Assembly: GCA_021813385.1 (NCBI GenBank)
Contig: JAKAKT010000100.1
Location: 1-59,636, forward strand
Direction of reading: 5' to 3'
Length of the DNA stretch: 59,636 bases
Origin: Candidatus Micrarchaeota archaeon
GTDB lineage: Archaea; Micrarchaeota; Micrarchaeia; Burarchaeales; JAKAKT01
Shown here: positions 5,055 through 31,710 of the stretch, piece after piece
How the letters are laid out: each line of letters begins with the position of its first letter
Numbering within the stretch: the first letter of the stretch is position 1
Position numbers and translations under genes: made by a program
Notes under the pieces: generated by a model
Told to the model about the DNA's origin: nothing
The model's database searches: none
Seen by the model: the letters and a program-made list of their open reading frames with translations, nothing else

Positions 5055-5910
5055 AGGAACAAGCGGGGCGCCAGCACAAGGGCCATCCCTTACTTCAGAG
5101 CAGATAAAGGCCAAGCTCTCTCTTTACGTAGGGTCACTTCCTTCAACAGTTATTGAGGACTTGTTCCAAACACTCAAGCCAATGGGTCTTCCAGAACAGA
5201 AAGTGGATGAAATAATACAGAGAACCATCAAATCCTATACGGGCCAGGAATCAACTTCCCGCATGGATGAACTTGTGGAAAAGATGAACAACCTGGAAGA
5301 TACCCTCATCCGGGCACTCAAGTCAATGGAAACGAGGCAGGAACGCGCACCTGAACCCGAACCATCTCCGGAGCCAGCACCGTTGCCTCGACAAGCCCAG
5401 CAAGCAATGGATTATCCGGAGCCAGAGCAAAAACAGACCAATAATTATGATTATAACCGAGACCCAGCGGAGAGAGCGCCAAAGCAGCGCAAGAAAGAAG
5501 AGGAGGACGAGGACTTCAACTGGTTGGATGACGAGCAATCAGAGGAAATCGCTCAAGGGCACAGGATTCTCCTTCCTGACATCGCAGACAGCGCCATAGC
5601 GAACGCAGTGCTCTTAAAATGGGTCGAGTTCCTACTCGAGACAGTCGGGCACCAGAACCTTCCGGAAGTCCTTGACTATTACGTTGACATAGGCTGGATA
5701 AGCGAAAAAGTTACGATGAAGCTCCTGGCATACGCCAGCGGCATGGTCGCCCCAAGGGGCAGGGCTAAGGAGAAACTTTCAACAAAGGACCACCTCCGCT
5801 CCCTTCTCTTCATCGAGAAACTGCGAGGCCGTGCTTTTGACCAGAGCAAGCTGACCCGCCTCGAGCGGGAGATAGAATATACCATAGAAAAACGAATCCG
5901 CCACGATTGA
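5032..5910 (+). CDS. arlD: Archaellum accessory protein D/E-like
   Basis: C-terminal FlaD/E domain: WVEFLLETVG, LDYYVDIGWISE, LSTKDHLRSLLFIEKL. Acidic/Pro-rich linker. Confidence 0.87.
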   Translation: MNLSSDHEGTSGAPAQGPSLTSEQIKAKLSLYVGSLPSTVIEDLFQTLKPMGLPEQKVDEIIQRTIKSYTGQESTSRMDELVEKMNNLEDTLIRALKSMETRQERAPEPEPSPEPAPLPRQAQQAMDYPEPEQKQTNNYDYNRDPAERAPKQRKKEEEDEDFNWLDDEQSEEIAQGHRILLPDIADSAIANAVLLKWVEFLLETVGHQNLPEVLDYYVDIGWISEKVTMKLLAYASGMVAPRGRAKEKLSTKDHLRSLLFIEKLRGRAFDQSKLTRLEREIEYTIEKRIRHD

Positions 5911-12002: not shown

Positions 12003-15000
12003 ATGAAGAAGATTCGGGCAGCCCTCATCGAAGCCGACTACGTCACGAAGAATGATAAAGCGATAGTCCGCCTCACGCTGAAACGGAAGAAGTTCTTCAG
12101 GCTCTACGACGACAGTTTTGAGCCCTACTTCTACCTGCAGGCTGACGACCTTGGGCGGGCGACGGAATTGCTCGGGCAGCTCTCAGCCGAGGACAGGGGC
12201 AAGACAGTCAAGCTCAAGCGAATCGAGAGAGTCAAAAAACTTTTGCATAGCAAGGAAGCCGAGCTCCTGAAAGTCTTCTGCTTCCACCCCTCGCACGTTC
12301 CACTGTTCCGGGACAAGGCCAGGGAAATCGGGACCCCCTACGAGCACGACATCCGTTTCGCCCGCCGCTACATAATAGACAAGGGCCTCACCCCATTCAA
12401 CATACTCGAGATTGAGAAAGAGGGCAAGATGATTAAGTCTATCCAGGACACGGGCGAACCCGATACCCGGCTCAAGACCCTCGCCTTCGACATAGAAACC
12501 TACAACCCGCAGGGCCTTCCCAGGGAGAGGAGCGATCCGGCCGTTATGATAAGCTACGCTTCCAAGGATGAGGATGATAGGAAGGCCGGGGTCCTTACTT
12601 TCCGCGAGACGGGGAAGCCTTTCGCGAAAAAATTCGGAACCGAAAAGGAGATGATTGAGGGATTCCTGAAACTGGTCAAGGATTTCGACGCAGAACTCCT
12701 TCTGGGCTACAATTCCACTTCGTTCGATTTGCCATATTTGAAAGCCCGGGCTGAGGCCAATTCGATATCGTTTGGAATAGGGCGGGACAACACCTCATTC
12801 CGGGCGAGGAGAAGGGGGATGTTCAACGAGGCAAAGATAACCGGCAGGCTGCACATCGACCTCTACCCCGTTGTCCGGTTCCTAGGGATTATCGGCGCCC
12901 TTCGGATTTACAAGTTCACGCTCGAGAACGCATATGCTGAAATAACCGGCAAGAAAAAACTGATGGTGGAGAAACTAGGAATATGGCAGATGTGGGACAG
13001 CGATTCCGGAAGGGGGAAGCTTGCCGACTATTCGCTCGGGGACGCCCAATCCACAATTGAAATCGGGGAGCGCGTCCTCCCGATGGAAATTGAGATTTCG
13101 AGGCTTGTCCGGGTTCCCCTGTTCGAGGTTGCCGGCATCTCAACCGGCCACCTGGTCGAACTCTTCCTCATCCAGAGTTCCTACCAGAAAAACATCGTGG
13201 TCCCAAGCAGGCCGAGGGAGGAGGAAGTCCAATCGAGAGAGGGCTATATGCTCCAGGGAGCTTATGTCCGCATCCCGAACCCAGGAGTCTATGAAAATAT
13301 GGCAGTGTTCGACTTCAGGGGCCTGTATCCCTCGATAATCACCTCCTACAACATCGACCCGGACATGATAAACTGCGACTGCTGCACAGAGCAGGAGTCC
13401 AAGGTCTCTCCCTCGGGCTCCCGTTTCTGCACCAAGAGGACCGGCCACATACCGGAAGTCCTCGGGAACATCGTCGAGCACAGGACTCAGATAAAGAGGA
13501 AAATAAAGTCCATCCCGAAGGATTCTGAGGAGTACGCCATCTTGAATGCCCGCCAGCAGGCGCTCAAGGTTCTTGCTAACAGTTTTTACGGGATGCTCGC
13601 CTATGCCCGCTCCCGCTGGTATTCAAAAGAATGCGGGGAGGCGGTAACATCTTTCGGCCGCCACTACATCCAGGAGACCGCGAAAAAAGCCGAAGAAACA
13701 GGATTCGAAGTGCTTTACGGGGATAGCATCACTTCCGACAGATTCGTAACGATTCTCGACCAGCACGGGATCATCCAGATACAAAACATCGAGGAGTTTT
13801 TCGAGAAATACAAAAATAACGCAACGAAACGAGGGGAAAAGGAAGCAATCCCGCTTACGGGCTTCAAAGCACTTACGCTTAATCCGAAAACCAAGGGGTC
13901 CGAGTGGAAAGAAATAACCGAAATAATCCGGCACAGGGCGAACAAAAAGATATTCCGGATTTCGCAGAAATTCGGCGAAACGATCGTGACCGAAGACCAT
14001 TCGATAATGGTTGAGAAAGGAGGAAAACTAGTCGAAGCAACCCCGGAAGAAATGGGGGGGAATCCGTTTGTGAAGATAAACTCGGTCCCCGAAGTGAAAC
14101 GGATGCAGCAAATAGATGTCTACGGGTACTTGAAGGGAAATTCATACAAGATAACCTATAAGGGCAAAGAGAAAACAATCTCCGCAAAAGCCGACAGTAG
14201 CCACGTATGGTTCAACTGGACCGTTCGCAAGAACCCCGTAAAAGTGAAGCGCTTCATACCGCTCGATAGCCCGGATTTCGAAAGCCTTTGCAGGCTCCTT
14301 GGCGCCTACATCCCGGAGGGCAGTTCATCTACCCCAGAAACCACTTCGAGCAGATGGGGCGCTTCAATATCATCGGCAGACACCCGGTGGCTGGAGCAGT
14401 TGAAGCAGGACTACGAAAAGCTATTTGCCAACGCCCGCTCGTGCATAATCAAGTCCACCAAAAAAACCCGTGATCTGGAATATCTTACCCAAACATCAGT
14501 AAAACGCATCCGATACGAGGACCACACACATAAGCTGCAGATGATGAATCAGCTTTCAGCCATCCTGTTCAAGGCTTTTTGTGGGCAAAAGTCCATTGGC
14601 AAAAAGATCCCAGATTTCATTTTTCACGTTCCCGAAAAGCACAAGCTCCTACTGCTTGAGCAGATGTTAAAGGGTGACGGAACCCACACGGTGAACAACA
14701 AGCTCGGATATTCGAGAGAGTATATAGAAAGAAACTTCAGATACGCGACCCGTTCCCTCGGTCTTGTGGGCGGGCTTTCCCTCCTCCTAACGCAACTTGG
14801 GAGGAACCACTACATAACTTACCGGCCCGGCAAGAAACTTTACACTCTAGGCACTTCTGACCGAACGAACCAGAGCTTCGAGACGAAGTTAATCGAGGAG
14901 AAGTACAGTGGCTACGTGTATGACCTGTCCGTCAAAGACAACCACATGTTCGTTGATTCGTGCGGGCAAGTGTTGCTCCACAACACGGACTCGATTTTCC

Positions 15001-28847: not shown

Positions 28848-28873
28848 CCGGACCAATCCACTTGCGTGACTCC

Positions 28874-30472
28874 ATGGAAAATTCAGATGTTTACGAAGAG
28901 CTGAACAAAAAATGGAAATCCACCTGCCACGTCCTCCTCGGGGGCGGGGTAGGCGAGCTCTCGTCATTCGCCGAATGGCTCAAGTCGGACCGCCCGCACG
29001 CCAGAACCGCGAAGTCATCGCTCAGCGGGAATAACGTGTCCTTCTTCGACTCGAGCTATCCGAAAAATGCGAGATGGATAGGCTTTGAGGAGATTGACTA
29101 TTCCGCCGCGGAGCAGCCGATAGACATCAACAGGATAAAGGACATCGACTCCATCCTCGAGGCCGTTTCCGAGAGGATCAGGTATTGCGGCAACATACTG
29201 CTAGGCGAATTCAGCGGCATCGAAAAGAGCACCACCATTCTGGATTCCCATTACGTGTATGCATCGCAATGGGTCTCGAAGTCAAAGTACATAGCCTACA
29301 CGACCAGCTGCGTATTGGGGGAGTGTCTTTTTGGCGGGCATTGGGTGAGCGGGAGCTACCAGATACGCTCGAACACTTTTATGAGCCACAGGTGCTTCGA
29401 AGTCGTTAAGGTTGACTACTCCTCCGACTGCTACTACTCCCACGGGCTTTCGGCCTGCCACGACTGCCTCTTCTGCTTCAACCTCAAGTCGAAAAGGAAC
29501 GCAATCGGGAACAACCCGCTTCCGAAGGACAAGTACCTGGCGCTCAAGGGCAAGCTTCTTTCCGAAATCAGGGAGGAACTCGAGAAGAACAAGCGGGTGC
29601 CCCACGTCTACGGGTTCGTGGCCGATGCGAAGCTGGACTATTCCAGAATGAAGGAGGCATTTTCCGGGATGCCCGGCCAACCCGAAACAAAGGCAGACCT
29701 CGCGCCTGTTGAGAAGGCGTTCACGAGCGCGGCGCGAGTGATATTCGAGACCGAGCTCAAGGGAATAATGAAATATTCGGAGTGGCTTTCTAGGAACATC
29801 CCGACGTTTGAGAACGGGGCTTCCTGCGCCTCCGGGAAGGGCCTGCTGGTTTCCGATTACGGGGATTTCCTGCAATTCCCGAGAAACCGTCTCATAAACG
29901 ACGCGGAGGCCGACTGGATTGGTCAGCGACTGACGCTTTCGGACGATGAGTGCGGATGCCTGTCGTTCTCAAGCGCCCCGGAATCGCTCTCGCCTATCGC
30001 CTACTACGACCCCGAATGGCAGGTGGGGAAACTCAACAACAACTTCGAATGTCCCGTCTCGGTGGACGTCTCCAACTCATACAGGACAATCATCGGAGTC
30101 TCGTCAAAGAAGTGCGCCATAGGGAGGTGGCCCAGGGAATCCGACAACATTTTCGGCCTGCACCGCGTCCGCCTTTCCTCCTTCTGCATCAGGTGCTTCC
30201 ATTCGGAGAAGCTGCAGAGGTGCTTCGAAGTCCTCGAGGGCAGGAACTGCAGCGACTGCCTCTATTGCCACAATATCGAGAATGTCCACGACTCGATGTT
30301 CTGCTTCAACACCAAGAACAAGAGGTATGCGATTGGGAACGTCGAGTTGCCCAAGGAAAAATACCTGGAGATAAAGAAGAGGGTTCTCGAACAACTCAAC
30401 GACGAGCTCACGAGGACCAACGCGATTTCGCTTTCAATCTTCAACCTCCTGGACAGGCCAAAAAAACAATAA
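28874..30472 (+). CDS. Cys/Ser-rich repeat protein with two internal repeats, function unknown
   Basis: Both halves end in RCFEV...CxxCxFCFNxKxKRxAIGNxxLPKxKYL; paralog of 49221-50846. Confidence 0.8.
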   Translation: MENSDVYEELNKKWKSTCHVLLGGGVGELSSFAEWLKSDRPHARTAKSSLSGNNVSFFDSSYPKNARWIGFEEIDYSAAEQPIDINRIKDIDSILEAVSERIRYCGNILLGEFSGIEKSTTILDSHYVYASQWVSKSKYIAYTTSCVLGECLFGGHWVSGSYQIRSNTFMSHRCFEVVKVDYSSDCYYSHGLSACHDCLFCFNLKSKRNAIGNNPLPKDKYLALKGKLLSEIREELEKNKRVPHVYGFVADAKLDYSRMKEAFSGMPGQPETKADLAPVEKAFTSAARVIFETELKGIMKYSEWLSRNIPTFENGASCASGKGLLVSDYGDFLQFPRNRLINDAEADWIGQRLTLSDDECGCLSFSSAPESLSPIAYYDPEWQVGKLNNNFECPVSVDVSNSYRTIIGVSSKKCAIGRWPRESDNIFGLHRVRLSSFCIRCFHSEKLQRCFEVLEGRNCSDCLYCHNIENVHDSMFCFNTKNKRYAIGNVELPKEKYLEIKKRVLEQLNDELTRTNAISLSIFNLLDRPKKQ

Positions 30473-30473
30473 C

Positions 30474-30587
30474 AAAAAAAGCGGGCCCGATCCCTAAACC
30501 GCAGGGGGAGCGCCCCCTTCAGTTTTAGGGCTAATCCTGATTCCCCCCTCGAACTCAACAACATATAATAAAAAAAAGCGGGCCCGA
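30474..30587. repeat. 17-bp direct repeat of the tRNA-Arg 3' end + T tract, flanking an 80-bp hairpin spacer
   Basis: AAAAAAAGCGGGCCCGA at 30474-30490 and 30571-30587; spacer hairpin CCCTAAA...GGGGGagcgCCCCC...TTTAGGG. Confidence 0.8.
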
Positions 30588-30696
30588 AGGGATGTGCACC
30601 GCAGGTGCACAGACGATTGCGCTGTGCGCAAGCGGATTCGAACCCTTATCCCGAGGTCCGAAGCCTCGTCGGCTATCCGGATTACCACACGGGCCC
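30579..30696 (-). tRNA. tRNA-Arg(UCG) with a 44-nt intron at 59/60 (30593-30636)
   Basis: GGGCCCG/CGGGCCC-G; anticodon arm CGAGG-CTTCGGA-CCTCG; T arm AAGGG-TTCGAA^T-CCCTT; intron helix CCGC/GCGG with a relaxed BHB (one mismatch); T-tract terminator. Confidence 0.88.
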
Positions 30697-30699
30697 AGG

Positions 30700-30915
30700 T
30701 TATATACTCCATCTGTAAATTTTCAGTCTTTTATTGTCTTTCATCAATCTTACAACGCCCCAACGCCTCAACCGTCCAATAATCTCATTTGTTGTTCTCC
30801 AATTGGTTCTTGCTTCTATGGAGATTTGGCTGACTGAAGTGCCCTCTTTTCTGTATTTTTTAAGTGCGTTTACGACTGAAGATTCTATTTCATCATAAAT
30901 CCTTCTTTTTGGCAT
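30700..30915 (-). CDS. Small winged-HTH protein
   Basis: TSVSQISIEARTNWRTTNEIIGRLRRWGVV; TTTAAA box about 25 nt upstream; stop lies 3 nt before tRNA-Arg. Confidence 0.7.
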   Translation of the reverse strand: MPKRRIYDEIESSVVNALKKYRKEGTSVSQISIEARTNWRTTNEIIGRLRRWGVVRLMKDNKRLKIYRWSI

Positions 30916-30983
30916 ATCTATATTATCTATACGTAGATTTTTAAACATATCCTACTAAATAGTTATAACTATATAGTGATAAA

Positions 30984-31673
30984 ATGAAAAGGGAAGACCT
31001 CGCATATTTTGTTGGAGTTTTACATAGCGACGGATGCGTCTTCACCTACAGTTTCAGAAACAAAACAAGACACAGATATATTTTGGATGTCGGAAAAAAA
31101 TCTCTGCCAATGCTAAAAAAGGTCAATCAAATCTTTCGTGAAGAATTCGGCAGAACGCTCAAAATCCGCAAAAAATTCCATAAAAATGAAAACCCGACAT
31201 TTTTGATAGAAGTCGACATCGCGAATTTAAGAGGCGCATTTGCCAGATTGAGCATTGATAAAGAGAAATTAGCGCCCTGGATTAAAACTAATCAACATTT
31301 CTTTTGTGCATATCTTGCAGGCGTTATAGACGGTGATGGTGACATCTCTATCAAAAGACCGCAATACCCTCAGTGCCGGGTCAGAATTACTGCTGGCGAA
31401 AAACTACCCAGATTGATGAAACTAATACGTCGGCACCTCAAATGCCCCGGCAATATTGAACGGGCCATTGTTTCTACATATACTTTGCCAAGGCCAAAAA
31501 TAAAATTTGGCATAGGATATCGGCACTGTTTTTACTTGTCTCCGAAGAACATGAAAATATTCAAAAAATTTGTCTTGCCGCATATCAATATAATGCACAA
31601 ACGACGGAAGTTGCTCGAGTTTTACACGTCCAGGAAAAATGCGCTATCCGTTGCGCCACGGGCCCGCGAGTAA
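30984..31673 (+). CDS. Free-standing double-motif LAGLIDADG homing endonuclease
   Basis: LAYFVGVLHSDG and YLAGVIDGDG motifs; basic protein; AT-richer than flanks; no intein splicing blocks. Confidence 0.9.
   Translation: MKREDLAYFVGVLHSDGCVFTYSFRNKTRHRYILDVGKKSLPMLKKVNQIFREEFGRTLKIRKKFHKNENPTFLIEVDIANLRGAFARLSIDKEKLAPWIKTNQHFFCAYLAGVIDGDGDISIKRPQYPQCRVRITAGEKLPRLMKLIRRHLKCPGNIERAIVSTYTLPRPKIKFGIGYRHCFYLSPKNMKIFKKFVLPHINIMHKRRKLLEFYTSRKNALSVAPRARE
31640..31665 (-). pseudogene. Isolated 5' fragment (nt 1-26) of a tRNA-Arg
   Basis: GGGCCCG-TG-GCGC-AACGGATA-GCGC-A with a perfect D stem and G18G19A20; TTTATAAA at 31691-31698 sits at promoter distance. Confidence 0.72.
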
Positions 31674-31710
31674 AGGTAGGGAATCTCGGATTTATAAATG
31701 TGGGACACTT

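Follow-up and report, generated by a model that had tools for sequence, protein, structure and literature searches.

A mobile LAGLIDADG cassette that interrupts an archaeal tRNA-Arg(UCG) gene and carries a complete second allele

SegB of phage T4 is a free-standing GIY-YIG endonuclease encoded within a cluster of tRNA genes, and it recognises a T-arm motif (PMC2330249). Its target is a conserved tRNA sequence of genomes without the endonuclease gene, and the endonuclease and its neighbouring tRNA genes are co-inherited while markers of the recipient are lost (PMC2330249). The locus described here, from the genome of an acid-mine Candidatus Micrarchaeota archaeon (G000), can be likened to SegB in its free-standing endonuclease gene among tRNA genes, in the nature of the apparent target and in the joint inheritance of endonuclease and tRNA gene. 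It differs from SegB in its LAGLIDADG enzyme, in its place on an archaeal chromosome, in a probable break point near nt 26/27, and in that the cassette physically breaks the resident gene and delivers a whole replacement allele; it is known from sequence alone.

A second parallel is found in the mORFs of fungal mitochondria, which bring a foreign gene end with them, as in atp6 of Allomyces and atp6, atp9, cox2 and nad3 of Glomus (PMC3630166). In the cases set out in that source, a gene has been invaded by a LAGLIDADG (or GIY-YIG) ORF that brought along a foreign version of the segment it displaced, and the native segment persists as a remnant next to the insert. The native segment agrees with close relatives, whereas the incoming one is divergent and of horizontal origin. 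These mORFs reside in organelle protein genes, the ORF is often in frame, and it is the native 3' end that is left over (PMC3630166). The cassette, in contrast, lies in a chromosomal tRNA gene with its ORF antisense, brings a complete copy, and leaves the native 5' end and promoter. Nt 1-26 of the native allele (type B, with a GCGC/GCGC D stem) remain, a foreign and complete allele (type A, D stem TGGT/GCCG) has been delivered, and one related contig (L030) also keeps a 3' remnant.

Endonuclease-bearing introns occur in archaeal rRNA. Enzymes of the I-DmoI type belong to the same protein family as the cassette enzyme and share with it a single chain with two motifs, an archaeal host and a stable-RNA gene as apparent target. 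The kinship to solved LAGLIDADG members is drawn from sequence profiles and is remote: the family profile matches an I-DmoI/I-CreI chimera (E 6.7e-10), PI-PfuI (1.4e-6) and I-DmoI (6.3e-4), with PDB 1mow and 5akm as the I-DmoI-type structures. Whereas I-DmoI-type enzymes are encoded on the sense strand of spliced rRNA introns, the cassette enzyme is free-standing, antisense to the tRNA and outside any intron. Integrase-type elements also insert in tRNA genes, and there a duplicated tRNA part preserves a working tRNA. The cassette resembles them in its insertion into a tRNA gene, its duplicated tRNA part and a tRNA that still works; unlike them it has no integrase, is only about 1 kb long, and duplicates no identical attachment core but parts of two different alleles. 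A literature search, with subscription journals and supplementary files outside it, found no published account of such a cassette.

Layout of the cassette and its edges

The window, that is the whole stretch of 59,636 nucleotides analysed, contains the TATA box of a resident tRNA-Arg promoter (TTTATAAA, 31691..31698, minus strand), which ends 26 nt before a fragment corresponding to the first 26 nt of a tRNA-Arg(UCG) gene of type B (31640..31665, minus strand), directly followed by a T5 run. Because its first 25 nt are identical at 25/25 positions to full-length tRNA-Arg(UCG) genes of three relatives' genomes (G005, G006 and G013), the fragment is not a chance look-alike; it is equally identical to the fragment found in a further relative, G004. 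It is single-copy in the genome, and the region before it is 79% identical, over 55 nt across promoter and tRNA start, to the promoter of an uninterrupted tRNA in G001. A search of the G000 genome that tolerated 4 mismatches in 24 nt did not recover an anticodon arm of type B. The resident gene, formerly a single-copy type B gene beside an M50 protease gene, has kept its promoter and nt 1-26 and lost nt 27-76, and the promoter would now drive just the 26-nt remnant.

On the plus strand, antisense to the tRNA, lies the free-standing gene of a two-motif LAGLIDADG endonuclease of 229 aa (30984..31673), without host-protein flanks. It matches Pfam LAGLIDADG_3 (PF14528; 25.2 bits vs cut-off 22.5) and LAGLIDADG_1 (PF00961; 23.4 vs cut-off 23.1), and its motifs read YFVGVLHSDG (with D16) and LAGVIDGDG (with D118); among 18 family members D118 is invariant and D16 nearly so. 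Across five intact copies the whole ORF and its catalytic residues are under purifying selection (dN/dS 0.08-0.22). As an earlier sequence-only reading of this DNA had noticed, the end of the gene runs through the tRNA fragment: its final 10 codons and stop codon overlap the fragment and reach slightly beyond it. Tail and stop codon come from the tRNA remnant and the spacer beyond, and the C-terminal tails are different in each copy. No integrase gene lies within or adjoining the cassette.

The second gene encodes a winged-helix-like DNA-binding protein of 71 aa (30700..30915, minus strand). Its ORF ends at 30700 and offers starts at 30948 and 30915, of which the latter corresponds to the second Met, where most homologues begin. 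The homologues form 13 known protein clusters with 73-99% identity and lengths of mostly 71-76 aa; Pfam matches are sub-threshold, and the nearest Atlas clusters, all small wHTH families at 0.94, offer a lead only. Judged by its dN/dS of 0.07-0.13, this gene, like the endonuclease gene, is under purifying selection. The region between the two genes (30916..30983) is a putative divergent promoter/operator, with a 14-bp perfect palindrome, ATAGTTATAACTAT (30959-30972), and the stretch TTTAAAAA (30938-30945). A near-invariant block of about 28 nt within it has one variable position in 5/5 cassettes, at a coding dS of 0.5-1.3.

The third component is a complete type A tRNA-Arg(UCG) (30579..30696, minus strand), the sole tRNA-Arg(UCG) in the assembly, with an anticodon-loop motif that is unique in the genome. 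Its T arm is interrupted at position 60/61 by a 44-nt intron (30592-30635) that the sequence-only reading does not mention and that explains both an Rfam score of just 25 bits and an ARAGORN 3' end that is misdrawn. The boundaries of the tRNA were set by the intron-less type A alleles of G004 and L028 (53.3 and 50.2 bits in Rfam), and that of the intron by an identical intron in other tRNAs. In each of G000, G001 and G014 the type A allele contains this intron; because the same intron is found at 60/61 of several other tRNAs, it was dropped as a sign of common descent. The distinct D stem of the inner gene, previously read as a recoding, is indeed present, but it is that of the natural type A allele of cassette-free relatives and no special recoding. 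The genome as a whole is rich in odd tRNA introns, and just 10 tRNA matches pass the Rfam cut-off although it is 93% complete; an ARAGORN call of a tRNA-Ala with a 1329-nt intron on contig C2 is false, spanning ATPase-type genes.

A T8 terminator of the inner tRNA (30570..30577, minus strand) marks the right cassette edge. The mobile cassette is about 1.06 kb long, extends from about 30578 to 31639, and comprises the endonuclease gene, the 71-aa gene and the type A tRNA. Outside it, positions 30474..30569 (minus strand) hold a spacer and one element of a repeat family (core 30491-30548). After the element comes a second copy of TCGGGCCCGC and its T run, at 30490-30474, which is an exact 17-nt direct repeat of 30587-30571. 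Every feature listed in the sequence-only reading was found where that reading had placed it. Its view of a cassette nested within a broken tRNA fails on the 3' side: the hairpin and the second acceptor 3' copy exist, but they belong to a separate repeat element, and the copy was rejected as a 3' remnant of the broken gene. The element has 6 matches in G000 and is present in 8/29 genomes of the order (7 besides G000), its copies lying mostly away from tRNA pieces, and it is missing at the orthologous site in G004, G001 and G005, where the downstream convergent gene comes straight after the position of the right edge. The same succession of tRNA, element and repeated 3' end recurs at another tRNA on contig C99 of G000, and the G004 ortholog of that tRNA has neither element nor repeat.

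A tRNA piece with its own promoter recalls the tRNA genes that are split or tri-split in Nanoarchaeum and Caldivirga (PMC10714607), which likewise involve a separately promoted 5' piece, a DPANN archaeon and a break near the D arm. The 26-nt piece could be a working 5' half, joined in trans to the repeat element or to nt 27-76 of the inner tRNA; it has a good TATA box at the proper distance, is intact at 25/25 positions, finds a matching acceptor 3' strand after the element at 30491-30548, and has flanks for which a pairing of 9 + 11 bp can be drawn. That pairing, which had been noted with the caution that it might be chance, does exist at -18.5 kcal/mol, yet it is no better than chance, as 18% of 4585 minus-strand contig windows pair at least as well with the same stretch. 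The complementary type B 3' half was sought in the genome and none was found, and since an intact tRNA with the identical anticodon is present, a split gene is unneeded; in these three respects the locus departs from the split genes of Nanoarchaeum and Caldivirga. Moreover, the element has neither anticodon nor T arm and belongs to the dispersed family described above, three cassettes (G004, L026 and L028) occur without it, and the 5' piece is decayed in L028. A functional split gene is therefore very unlikely.

One could also envisage a single tRNA gene with a giant spliced intron, comparable to the archaeal rRNA introns that bear endonucleases, its outer 5' exon being joined to inner nt 27-76 or to the last acceptor strand, in a genome whose rRNA genes also carry LAGLIDADG ORFs and whose tRNA introns are often odd. 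Against this, the endonuclease occupies the strand opposite to that of the tRNA, neither a group I intron nor another intron family was matched at E up to 10, the inner copy is complete in itself and is followed by the T8 terminator, and a T5 run already follows the remnant. One and the same cassette is preceded by remnants of different tRNA types and by a decayed one, and a bulge-helix-bulge at 26/27 was not evident by eye in a fold of the inner tRNA alone. Such an intron is exceedingly improbable.

Filled sites, empty sites and horizontal spread

The duplicated 5' and 3' tRNA parts would be an artefact if the assembly had mis-joined strains, and it is true that G000 is a metagenome bin with 3.7% contamination and that a cassette variant of about 8% divergence co-occurs in two runs. 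Read support, which the sequence-only reading had asked of the duplication, is nevertheless present: Logan contigs bridge every junction in 4/4 runs, all from one study and two of them possibly the source of the assembly. Single contigs of run X1 cover 30667-31700 and 30310-30696 with zero differences, and a single contig of run X2 covers 30640-31700; the contigs of the four runs contain no empty-site joint. The layout also recurs independently in G004 and in metagenome contigs of other collections, leaving next to no chance of an artefact.

The expectation that relatives should show one intact tRNA-Arg with a GCGC D stem next to the M50 gene is borne out by G005, which has an intact type B tRNA-Arg(UCG) there and no endonuclease. 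In G004, a member of the same genus as G005 and of a different genus from G000, the order is M50, promoter, type B nt 1-26, LAGLIDADG gene, HTH gene and type A tRNA, and then the downstream gene of G005; in G005 it is M50, promoter, intact type B tRNA and a downstream gene identical in kind to that of G004, with no cassette. Filled and empty sites thus coexist within genera, G004 being filled and G005 empty, and likewise G000 filled and its congener G001 empty. Cassette-free type A genes are present in G001, G014, G020, G017, G022 and G007. In one pair of the same genus and with the same flank, G014 and G006, type A cleanly substitutes for type B with neither endonuclease nor remnant. None of the genomes of the order has both types, and genera g3 and g4 each contain both.

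Movement of the cassette between genera follows from its divergence, compared in one pair of cassette-bearing genomes. Cassette genes of G000 and G004 differ by a dS of 0.51-0.53 with a third-position identity of 0.76, whereas five flanking genes have a dS that is >2 or not computable and third-position identities of 0.35-0.44; even within a genus, flanks of G000 and G001 reach a dS of 1.1-2.6. A cassette dS of about 0.5 against saturated flanks indicates horizontal movement, and vertical inheritance with multiple losses was rejected on this contrast. The GC content of the cassette is 0.34-0.40 and that of its flanks about 0.50-0.58. The distribution is sporadic, with the endonuclease protein found in 2/29 genomes of the order and the family profile in 7/151 genomes of the class, G000 being counted in both. 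Single-protein queries, whose reach is limited to close relatives, found neither cassette protein in viral contigs.

Close relatives of the cassette occur on four metagenome contigs (L026, L027, L028 and L029), where the tRNA 5' piece in front is cut at or near nt 26 in L026, L027 and L029 and decayed in L028. The remnant is of type B in G000, G004 and L029 and has a GCTC/GAGC D stem in L026 and L027. Junctions fall at nt 25/26-26/27 in 4/6 cassettes, at nt 31/32 with 20 nt of filler in L027, and are unreadable in L028, so that they cluster at nt 25/26-26/27 for two kinds of resident tRNA. G300 has a full-length tRNA-Arg(UCG) with the GCTC/GAGC D arm. A class-wide pattern search of 401 genomes for the GGGCTCG-type fragment gave 1 match, with one mismatch, showing this D arm in use by tRNA-Arg(UCG); the precise gene that had been resident in L026 and L027 did not turn up. 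A type A tRNA follows the cassette in 4/4 copies that have that side on the contig (G000, G004, L028 and, start only, L026). The endonuclease copy of L029 is shortened by an ISAzo13-type transposase gene, and decay of the endonuclease gene is expected late in the life cycle of such enzymes.

A proposed route to tRNA gene replacement

We consider the cassette to be, probably, an archaeal form of intron-less homing that is directed at a tRNA gene and brings a replacement allele with it. Cleavage, the position of the cut and the immunity of type A are what we infer from the junction positions and from the differences between types A and B. The endonuclease would cut tRNA-Arg(UCG) genes of type B (and type C) close to where D stem and anticodon stem meet, at about nt 26/27, and the break would be repaired from a cassette-bearing copy, with the tRNA 5' part serving as left homology and either the flanking gene or the conserved 3' end of the tRNA as right homology. 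The type A allele would be spared, because it differs from type B at about 6/10 bases around this point (GCCGA/CGAGG vs GCGCG/ACTGG), and the cassette's own tRNA would take over the role of the lost resident one. That tRNA is probably co-transcribed with the 71-aa gene, or expressed from a weak promoter inside the 3' end of that gene, whose protein is the likely regulator of the conserved divergent promoter. Among the observations that weigh against this mechanism, right-hand homology between types B and A amounts to short stretches of 9-11 nt, which would make repair across genera inefficient, and a remnant intact at 25/25 positions calls for a recent insertion or for some selection on the remnant.

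The cassette might instead have replaced the tRNA when DNA was taken up and recombined in the ordinary way, or through another agent, with the LAGLIDADG gene as a passenger or in another role and in neither case targeting tRNA-Arg genes. The clean, endonuclease-free swap of type A for type B, in G014 against G006 and in G001, speaks for this, as does the fact that any incoming tRNA gene brings some homology in its conserved tRNA ends; and cleavage is itself a proposal. Purifying selection on the catalytic residues and the ORF in five intact copies, and the clustering of junctions in two resident tRNA types, argue against it, and the location of 18/20 family loci at tRNA genes is hard to square with a passenger. 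On balance we regard this explanation as unlikely. Because type A is cassette-free in six genomes, its spread is not necessarily tied to the endonuclease alone, and plain recombination could be an alternative route by which alleles are swapped. For the cassette itself, the reading as a selfish element that homes with neither intron, intein nor integrase gains from the empty site, from further endonuclease genes that end in tRNA pieces, and from the youth of the cassette. If the reading is true, an endonuclease of an archaeal chromosome spreads with the help of neither intron nor intein: it breaks a tRNA gene that is essential and single-copy, and supplies a working copy that it cannot cut. The findings suggest that, through selfish endonucleases, one species' allele of an essential tRNA gene can be exchanged for another's. 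The cassette thereby offers an explanation for the alternation of two very different tRNA-Arg(UCG) alleles within genera, and a natural route to a fragmented tRNA gene with its promoter kept, which bears on the debate on the origin of split tRNAs.

The wider endonuclease family

A survey for LAGLIDADG genes that end over tRNA 5' pieces, proposed in the sequence-only reading, found more of them in G004, L026, L027, L029 and L030. The last of these, a distant family member at 41% identity, is an independent instance of the remnant-plus-replacement plan: a 16-nt piece of a tRNA 5' end is followed by the endonuclease gene and a complete tRNA-Arg(UCG), and then by a T arm and acceptor 3' strand that are left over. 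In the wider LAGLIDADG family of DPANN archaea, 18/20 loci have the endonuclease gene no more than 150 nt from a tRNA gene or piece. More distant members have the endonuclease beside a complete tRNA, in varied orientation and with no duplicated piece; the replacement plan is thus not general to the family.

A tentative and, at present, rather doubtful extension is that this DPANN-wide family forms a guild of tRNA-gene-specific homing endonucleases, each lineage being tied to one tRNA species and travelling beside or with the immune allele of its target. Repeated invasions would then drive the turnover, between genera, of deeply divergent alleles at single-copy tRNA genes and leave behind promoter-bearing tRNA pieces, which, were this true, would be raw material for the split tRNA genes of DPANN archaea. 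The tRNA species named in this connection are Arg-UCG, Arg-CCG, Trp, His, Val, Cys, Ser and Asp. The family comprises 48 protein clusters, each annotated as hypothetical, and the association points to uncharacterised long-target nucleases whose targets may be read from their neighbour genes.

Locus layout and the inner tRNA

Read on the minus strand, the locus opens with a TATA box, TTTATAAA (31698-31691, read from the sequence), followed by the 5' part of a tRNA (31665-31640) that comprises GGGCCCG, UG, a D arm with a GCGC/GCGC stem and nt 26, with a T5 run directly 3' of it. A LAGLIDADG ORF of 229 aa lies on the plus strand (30984-31673), its last ten codons and stop running over and just past this outer tRNA piece, and a conserved intergenic block separates it from a divergent small ORF that ends at 30700 on the minus strand. 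The inner tRNA-Arg(UCG) starts at 30696 on the minus strand, three bases past the small ORF's end.

The inner tRNA scores only 25 bits with Rfam and its acceptor is mismatched in the ARAGORN call, because its T arm is interrupted by a 44-nt insertion (30635-30592) that separates loop nt 60 from stem nt 61; the insertion is followed by CCCTT, CGGGCCC and G, then by a T8 run. Among relatives, four or more other tRNAs have the 44-nt sequence at position 60/61 with over 90% identity, so that its borders are fixed, and insertion-free alleles of the inner tRNA score 53.3 bits (relative G004) and 50.2 bits (metagenome contig L028). These alleles and shared insertions show that the inner gene is a complete tRNA-Arg(UCG) interrupted by a non-canonical intron. 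The intron (window 30592-30635) consists of two hairpins, CCGCUUGCGC...GUGCACAU; it also occurs at loci L005, L006, L015, L020, L003 and L004, and at >90% identity in several different tRNAs, Arg and Thr among them, from five or more genomes. Transposing tRNA introns have been reported for Thermoproteales, and the 44-nt intron looks like one of that kind.

The tRNA genes of this genome are unusually disrupted. In the archaeal metagenome bin that includes the window's contig (1.78 Mb, 51% GC, 93% complete, 3.7% contamination), Rfam yields 24 tRNA matches at E up to 1, only 10 of them above cut-off, and ARAGORN calls seven, so that a real tRNA may look incomplete to standard tools; given 93% completeness, the 10 matches above cut-off mean that the majority of its tRNA genes must have non-canonical or multiple introns. 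The sequencing runs containing the window DNA are mine-drainage metagenomes, and one source labels homologues of the cassette proteins Candidatus Micrarchaeota. Every junction at the locus is bridged by contigs from all four runs, which come from a single study and two of which are possible sources of the assembly; a cassette variant about 8% divergent is also present in two of the four.

Two tRNA-Arg(UCG) alleles and the empty sites

Two widely differing forms of the tRNA-Arg(UCG) gene occur among relatives, each relative having one or the other. Type A, to which the inner tRNA belongs, has the stems UGGU/GCCG (D), CGAGG/CCUCG (anticodon) and AAGGG/CCCUU (T), and type B has GCGC/GCGC, ACUGG/CCAGU and GCGGG/CCCGY. 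When the order's 29 genomes were surveyed by pattern, eight had a type A-like gene (G000, the genome studied, with G001, G004, G014, G020, G017, G022 and G007) and nine a type B-like gene (G005, G003, G013, G010, G006, G016, G025, G019 and G009). G015 has a D stem of the GAGC type, five genomes gave nothing beyond ambiguous matches with two mismatches, six gave no match, and none had both types together. Genus g3 holds both types (G004 A, G005 B), as does genus g4 (G014 A, G006 B, with the same gene upstream). The inner tRNA, previously read as a purpose-made recoding, is instead a natural allele carried by relatives. The outer 26-nt piece is type B, and over its first 25 nt it matches the complete genes in G005, G006 and G013 without a difference; it is unique in G000, where no type B anticodon arm was found anywhere and the UCG anticodon-loop motif occurs only in the inner tRNA.

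The sequence-only reading had predicted that an empty site in relatives would show one intact tRNA with a GCGC D stem next to the M50 gene, and this is the arrangement in G005: M50 gene, promoter, one intact type B tRNA (34.5 bits) and a convergent 298-aa gene. In the congener G004, the M50 gene and promoter are followed by type B nt 1-26, the LAGLIDADG gene, the small gene, a type A tRNA that lacks the intron, and then the 298-aa gene. G001, a congener of G000, has no cassette: after its M50 gene come a promoter that shares 79% identity with the outer one of G000, a single type A tRNA and the 298-aa gene. The empty sites of G005 and G001 also exclude a fragment-plus-tRNA layout in endonuclease-free relatives, which the same reading had named as counting against it.

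Cassette movement and a proposed homing mechanism

The two cassette genes of G000 and G004 differ by dS of 0.51 and 0.53 (third-position identity 0.76), whereas five flanking genes have dS above 2 or not computable (0.35-0.44); between the congeners G000 and G001, flanking genes have dS of 1.1-2.6 (0.38-0.62). The cassette is AT-rich, with GC of 0.34-0.40 against about 0.50-0.58 in the flanks, and its protein is present in two of the order's 29 genomes, the family profile in 7 of the class's 151. The dS contrast, base composition and sporadic distribution indicate that the cassette arrived at this one site in both genera well after they had diverged.

Cassettes at 72-77% protein identity lie on four metagenome contigs (L026, L027, L028 and L029). 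In L026 and L027 the cassette stands behind another tRNA 5' piece, GGGCTCGUAGCUCAAUGGAUAGAGC, whose D arm is that of a tRNA-Arg(UCG) in genome G300; L029 has a type B piece ahead of the cassette, and an ISAzo13-family DDE transposase gene (L029:63-1256, 432 bits) replaces the first 43 endonuclease codons; in L028 the piece is decayed. Among these four contigs, G000 and G004, the junction falls at nt 25/26-26/27 in four of six copies (G000, G004, L026 and L029); in L027 it lies at 31/32, with 20 nt of filler added, and in L028 it is unreadable. Because the piece varies with the host and the cassette is constant, the piece is the leftover of each resident gene rather than cargo.

Both cassette genes are constrained: dN/dS ranges over 0.08-0.22 in 15 pairs of endonuclease genes and over 0.07-0.13 in 6 pairs of genes for the small protein. 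The endonuclease (229 aa) exceeds the Pfam cut-offs for LAGLIDADG_3 and LAGLIDADG_1 by a small margin, keeps both LAGLIDADG motifs and both catalytic aspartates in an alignment of 18 relatives, and the profile of that alignment matches I-DmoI-type structures (E 6.7e-10). Endonuclease tails past the conserved KLLxFY differ in every copy, so the tRNA remnant is not kept for coding reasons. The small protein is known from only 13 clusters, all 73-99% identical; since these homologues are mostly 71-76 aa, its actual start is the second Met, at 30915. It has only sub-threshold Pfam matches, and the nearest Atlas clusters, a lead only, are all small winged-helix regulators. The intergenic block, nearly invariant in five of five copies, contains a perfect 14-bp palindrome and a TTTAAAAA box; it may be a promoter and operator common to both genes, and the small protein probably binds it.

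A protein search for the endonuclease returned 48 clusters, all hypothetical, with members labelled by their sources as Micrarchaeota, Aenigmarchaeota, Woesearchaeota and Nanoarchaeota. We looked at 20 family loci (G000, G004, 12 further loci and six from a class-wide profile search; the near-identical contigs L032 and L033 are non-independent). In 18 of them no more than 150 nt separate the ORF from a tRNA gene or piece; the exceptions are L028, with a tRNA 289 nt off, beyond the small gene, and L035, at a contig end. The adjoining tRNAs are Arg-UCG, Arg-CCG, Trp, His, Val, Cys, Ser and probably Asp; the Asp identity was read by eye, and ARAGORN takes the copy in L065 for Tyr. L030 (41% identity) is an independent case of the replacement plan, in which a 16-nt 5' piece, the endonuclease and a full tRNA-Arg(UCG) with introns are followed by a leftover T arm and acceptor 3' strand, the latter matching the 5' piece. 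In other distant members the endonuclease gene merely adjoins a complete tRNA.

The best-supported reading of these sequences is intron-less homing that delivers a replacement allele. The endonuclease is predicted to cut tRNA-Arg(UCG) genes of type B and of the GCTC type close to nt 26/27, whereupon break repair would copy the cassette from a donor, the recipient's own sequence being retained up to the break. The type A tRNA would be spared, since about 6 of 10 bases around the break differ from the resident allele, and would assume decoding. Subsequent loss of the cassette, by deletion between 9-nt repeats (GGGCCCGUG) or by conversion without the endonuclease gene, would account for type A loci that lack a cassette and for the patchy distribution of A and B. 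A weak point for homing is the short right-hand homology between alleles; clean A-for-B swaps without any endonuclease mean that other routes exist, and a remnant intact at 25 of 25 positions needs recent insertion or selection.

SegB of phage T4 is a free-standing endonuclease of a tRNA cluster that targets a tRNA motif and takes neighbouring tRNA genes along (PMC2330249). Fungal mitochondrial mobile ORFs insert a LAGLIDADG gene along with a foreign version of the gene end that is displaced, the native end staying as a remnant (PMC3630166). The cassette joins both ideas in an archaeal chromosome, on a tRNA gene. No comparable cassette was found described in the literature covered, which excluded supplementary files and subscription journals.

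The 3' side and other insertions

A hairpin spacer, second TCGGGCCCGC and T run (30569-30474), formerly assigned to the broken tRNA, belong to a separate repeat element, and the pairing once suggested between the outer flanks is within chance. The core (30548-30491) is one copy of a family with six matches in G000 (window 30491-30548; C93:33756-33813; C41:21063-21112; C25:29925-29982; C12:13217-13263; C99:25748-25926), present in 8 of 29 genomes of the order. Its unit of ~55 nt combines a single-stranded, G-rich 5' portion (GGGGGGAAUCAGGAGGA) with a long hairpin that is conserved and ends in CCCCCUGCGGUUCGG, with extra hairpin insertions in some copies; Rfam matched no family, the sole hit being a weak L20-leader look-alike (19 bits). 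The element is absent from the cassette site in G004, G001 and G005. Two copies sit 3' of a tRNA whose own 3' end recurs as a direct repeat behind the element; one of them is on contig C99, at another tRNA, whose G004 orthologue has neither element nor repeat. By this comparison the 17-nt direct repeat at the cassette site looks like a duplication from element insertion. The family could be a small mobile element aimed at tRNA 3' ends, or a small RNA. At L013 (G001 C46, about 31300-31440), a copy of the element stands tail to tail with a tRNA-Val(CAC) on the opposite strand, which has several insertions.

A 536-aa ORF with repeated Cys-rich blocks (window 28862-30472, plus strand), without a Pfam match, lies between the tRNA and the 298-aa gene in G000 only; in G001, G004 and G005 the 298-aa gene directly adjoins the tRNA. 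The rRNA operon on contig C82 of G000 has two more LAGLIDADG ORFs, at 1237-1803 (16S region) and 5138-5725 (further along), with no relation to the cassette enzyme at BLAST level, and the tRNA-Ala(UGC) in its spacer has an insertion directly after the T loop. A weak LAGLIDADG_3 match (16 bits) at window 14646-14858 (plus strand), within a 1260-aa open frame, is probably an intein, and similar matches occur on contigs C93, C73 and C71.
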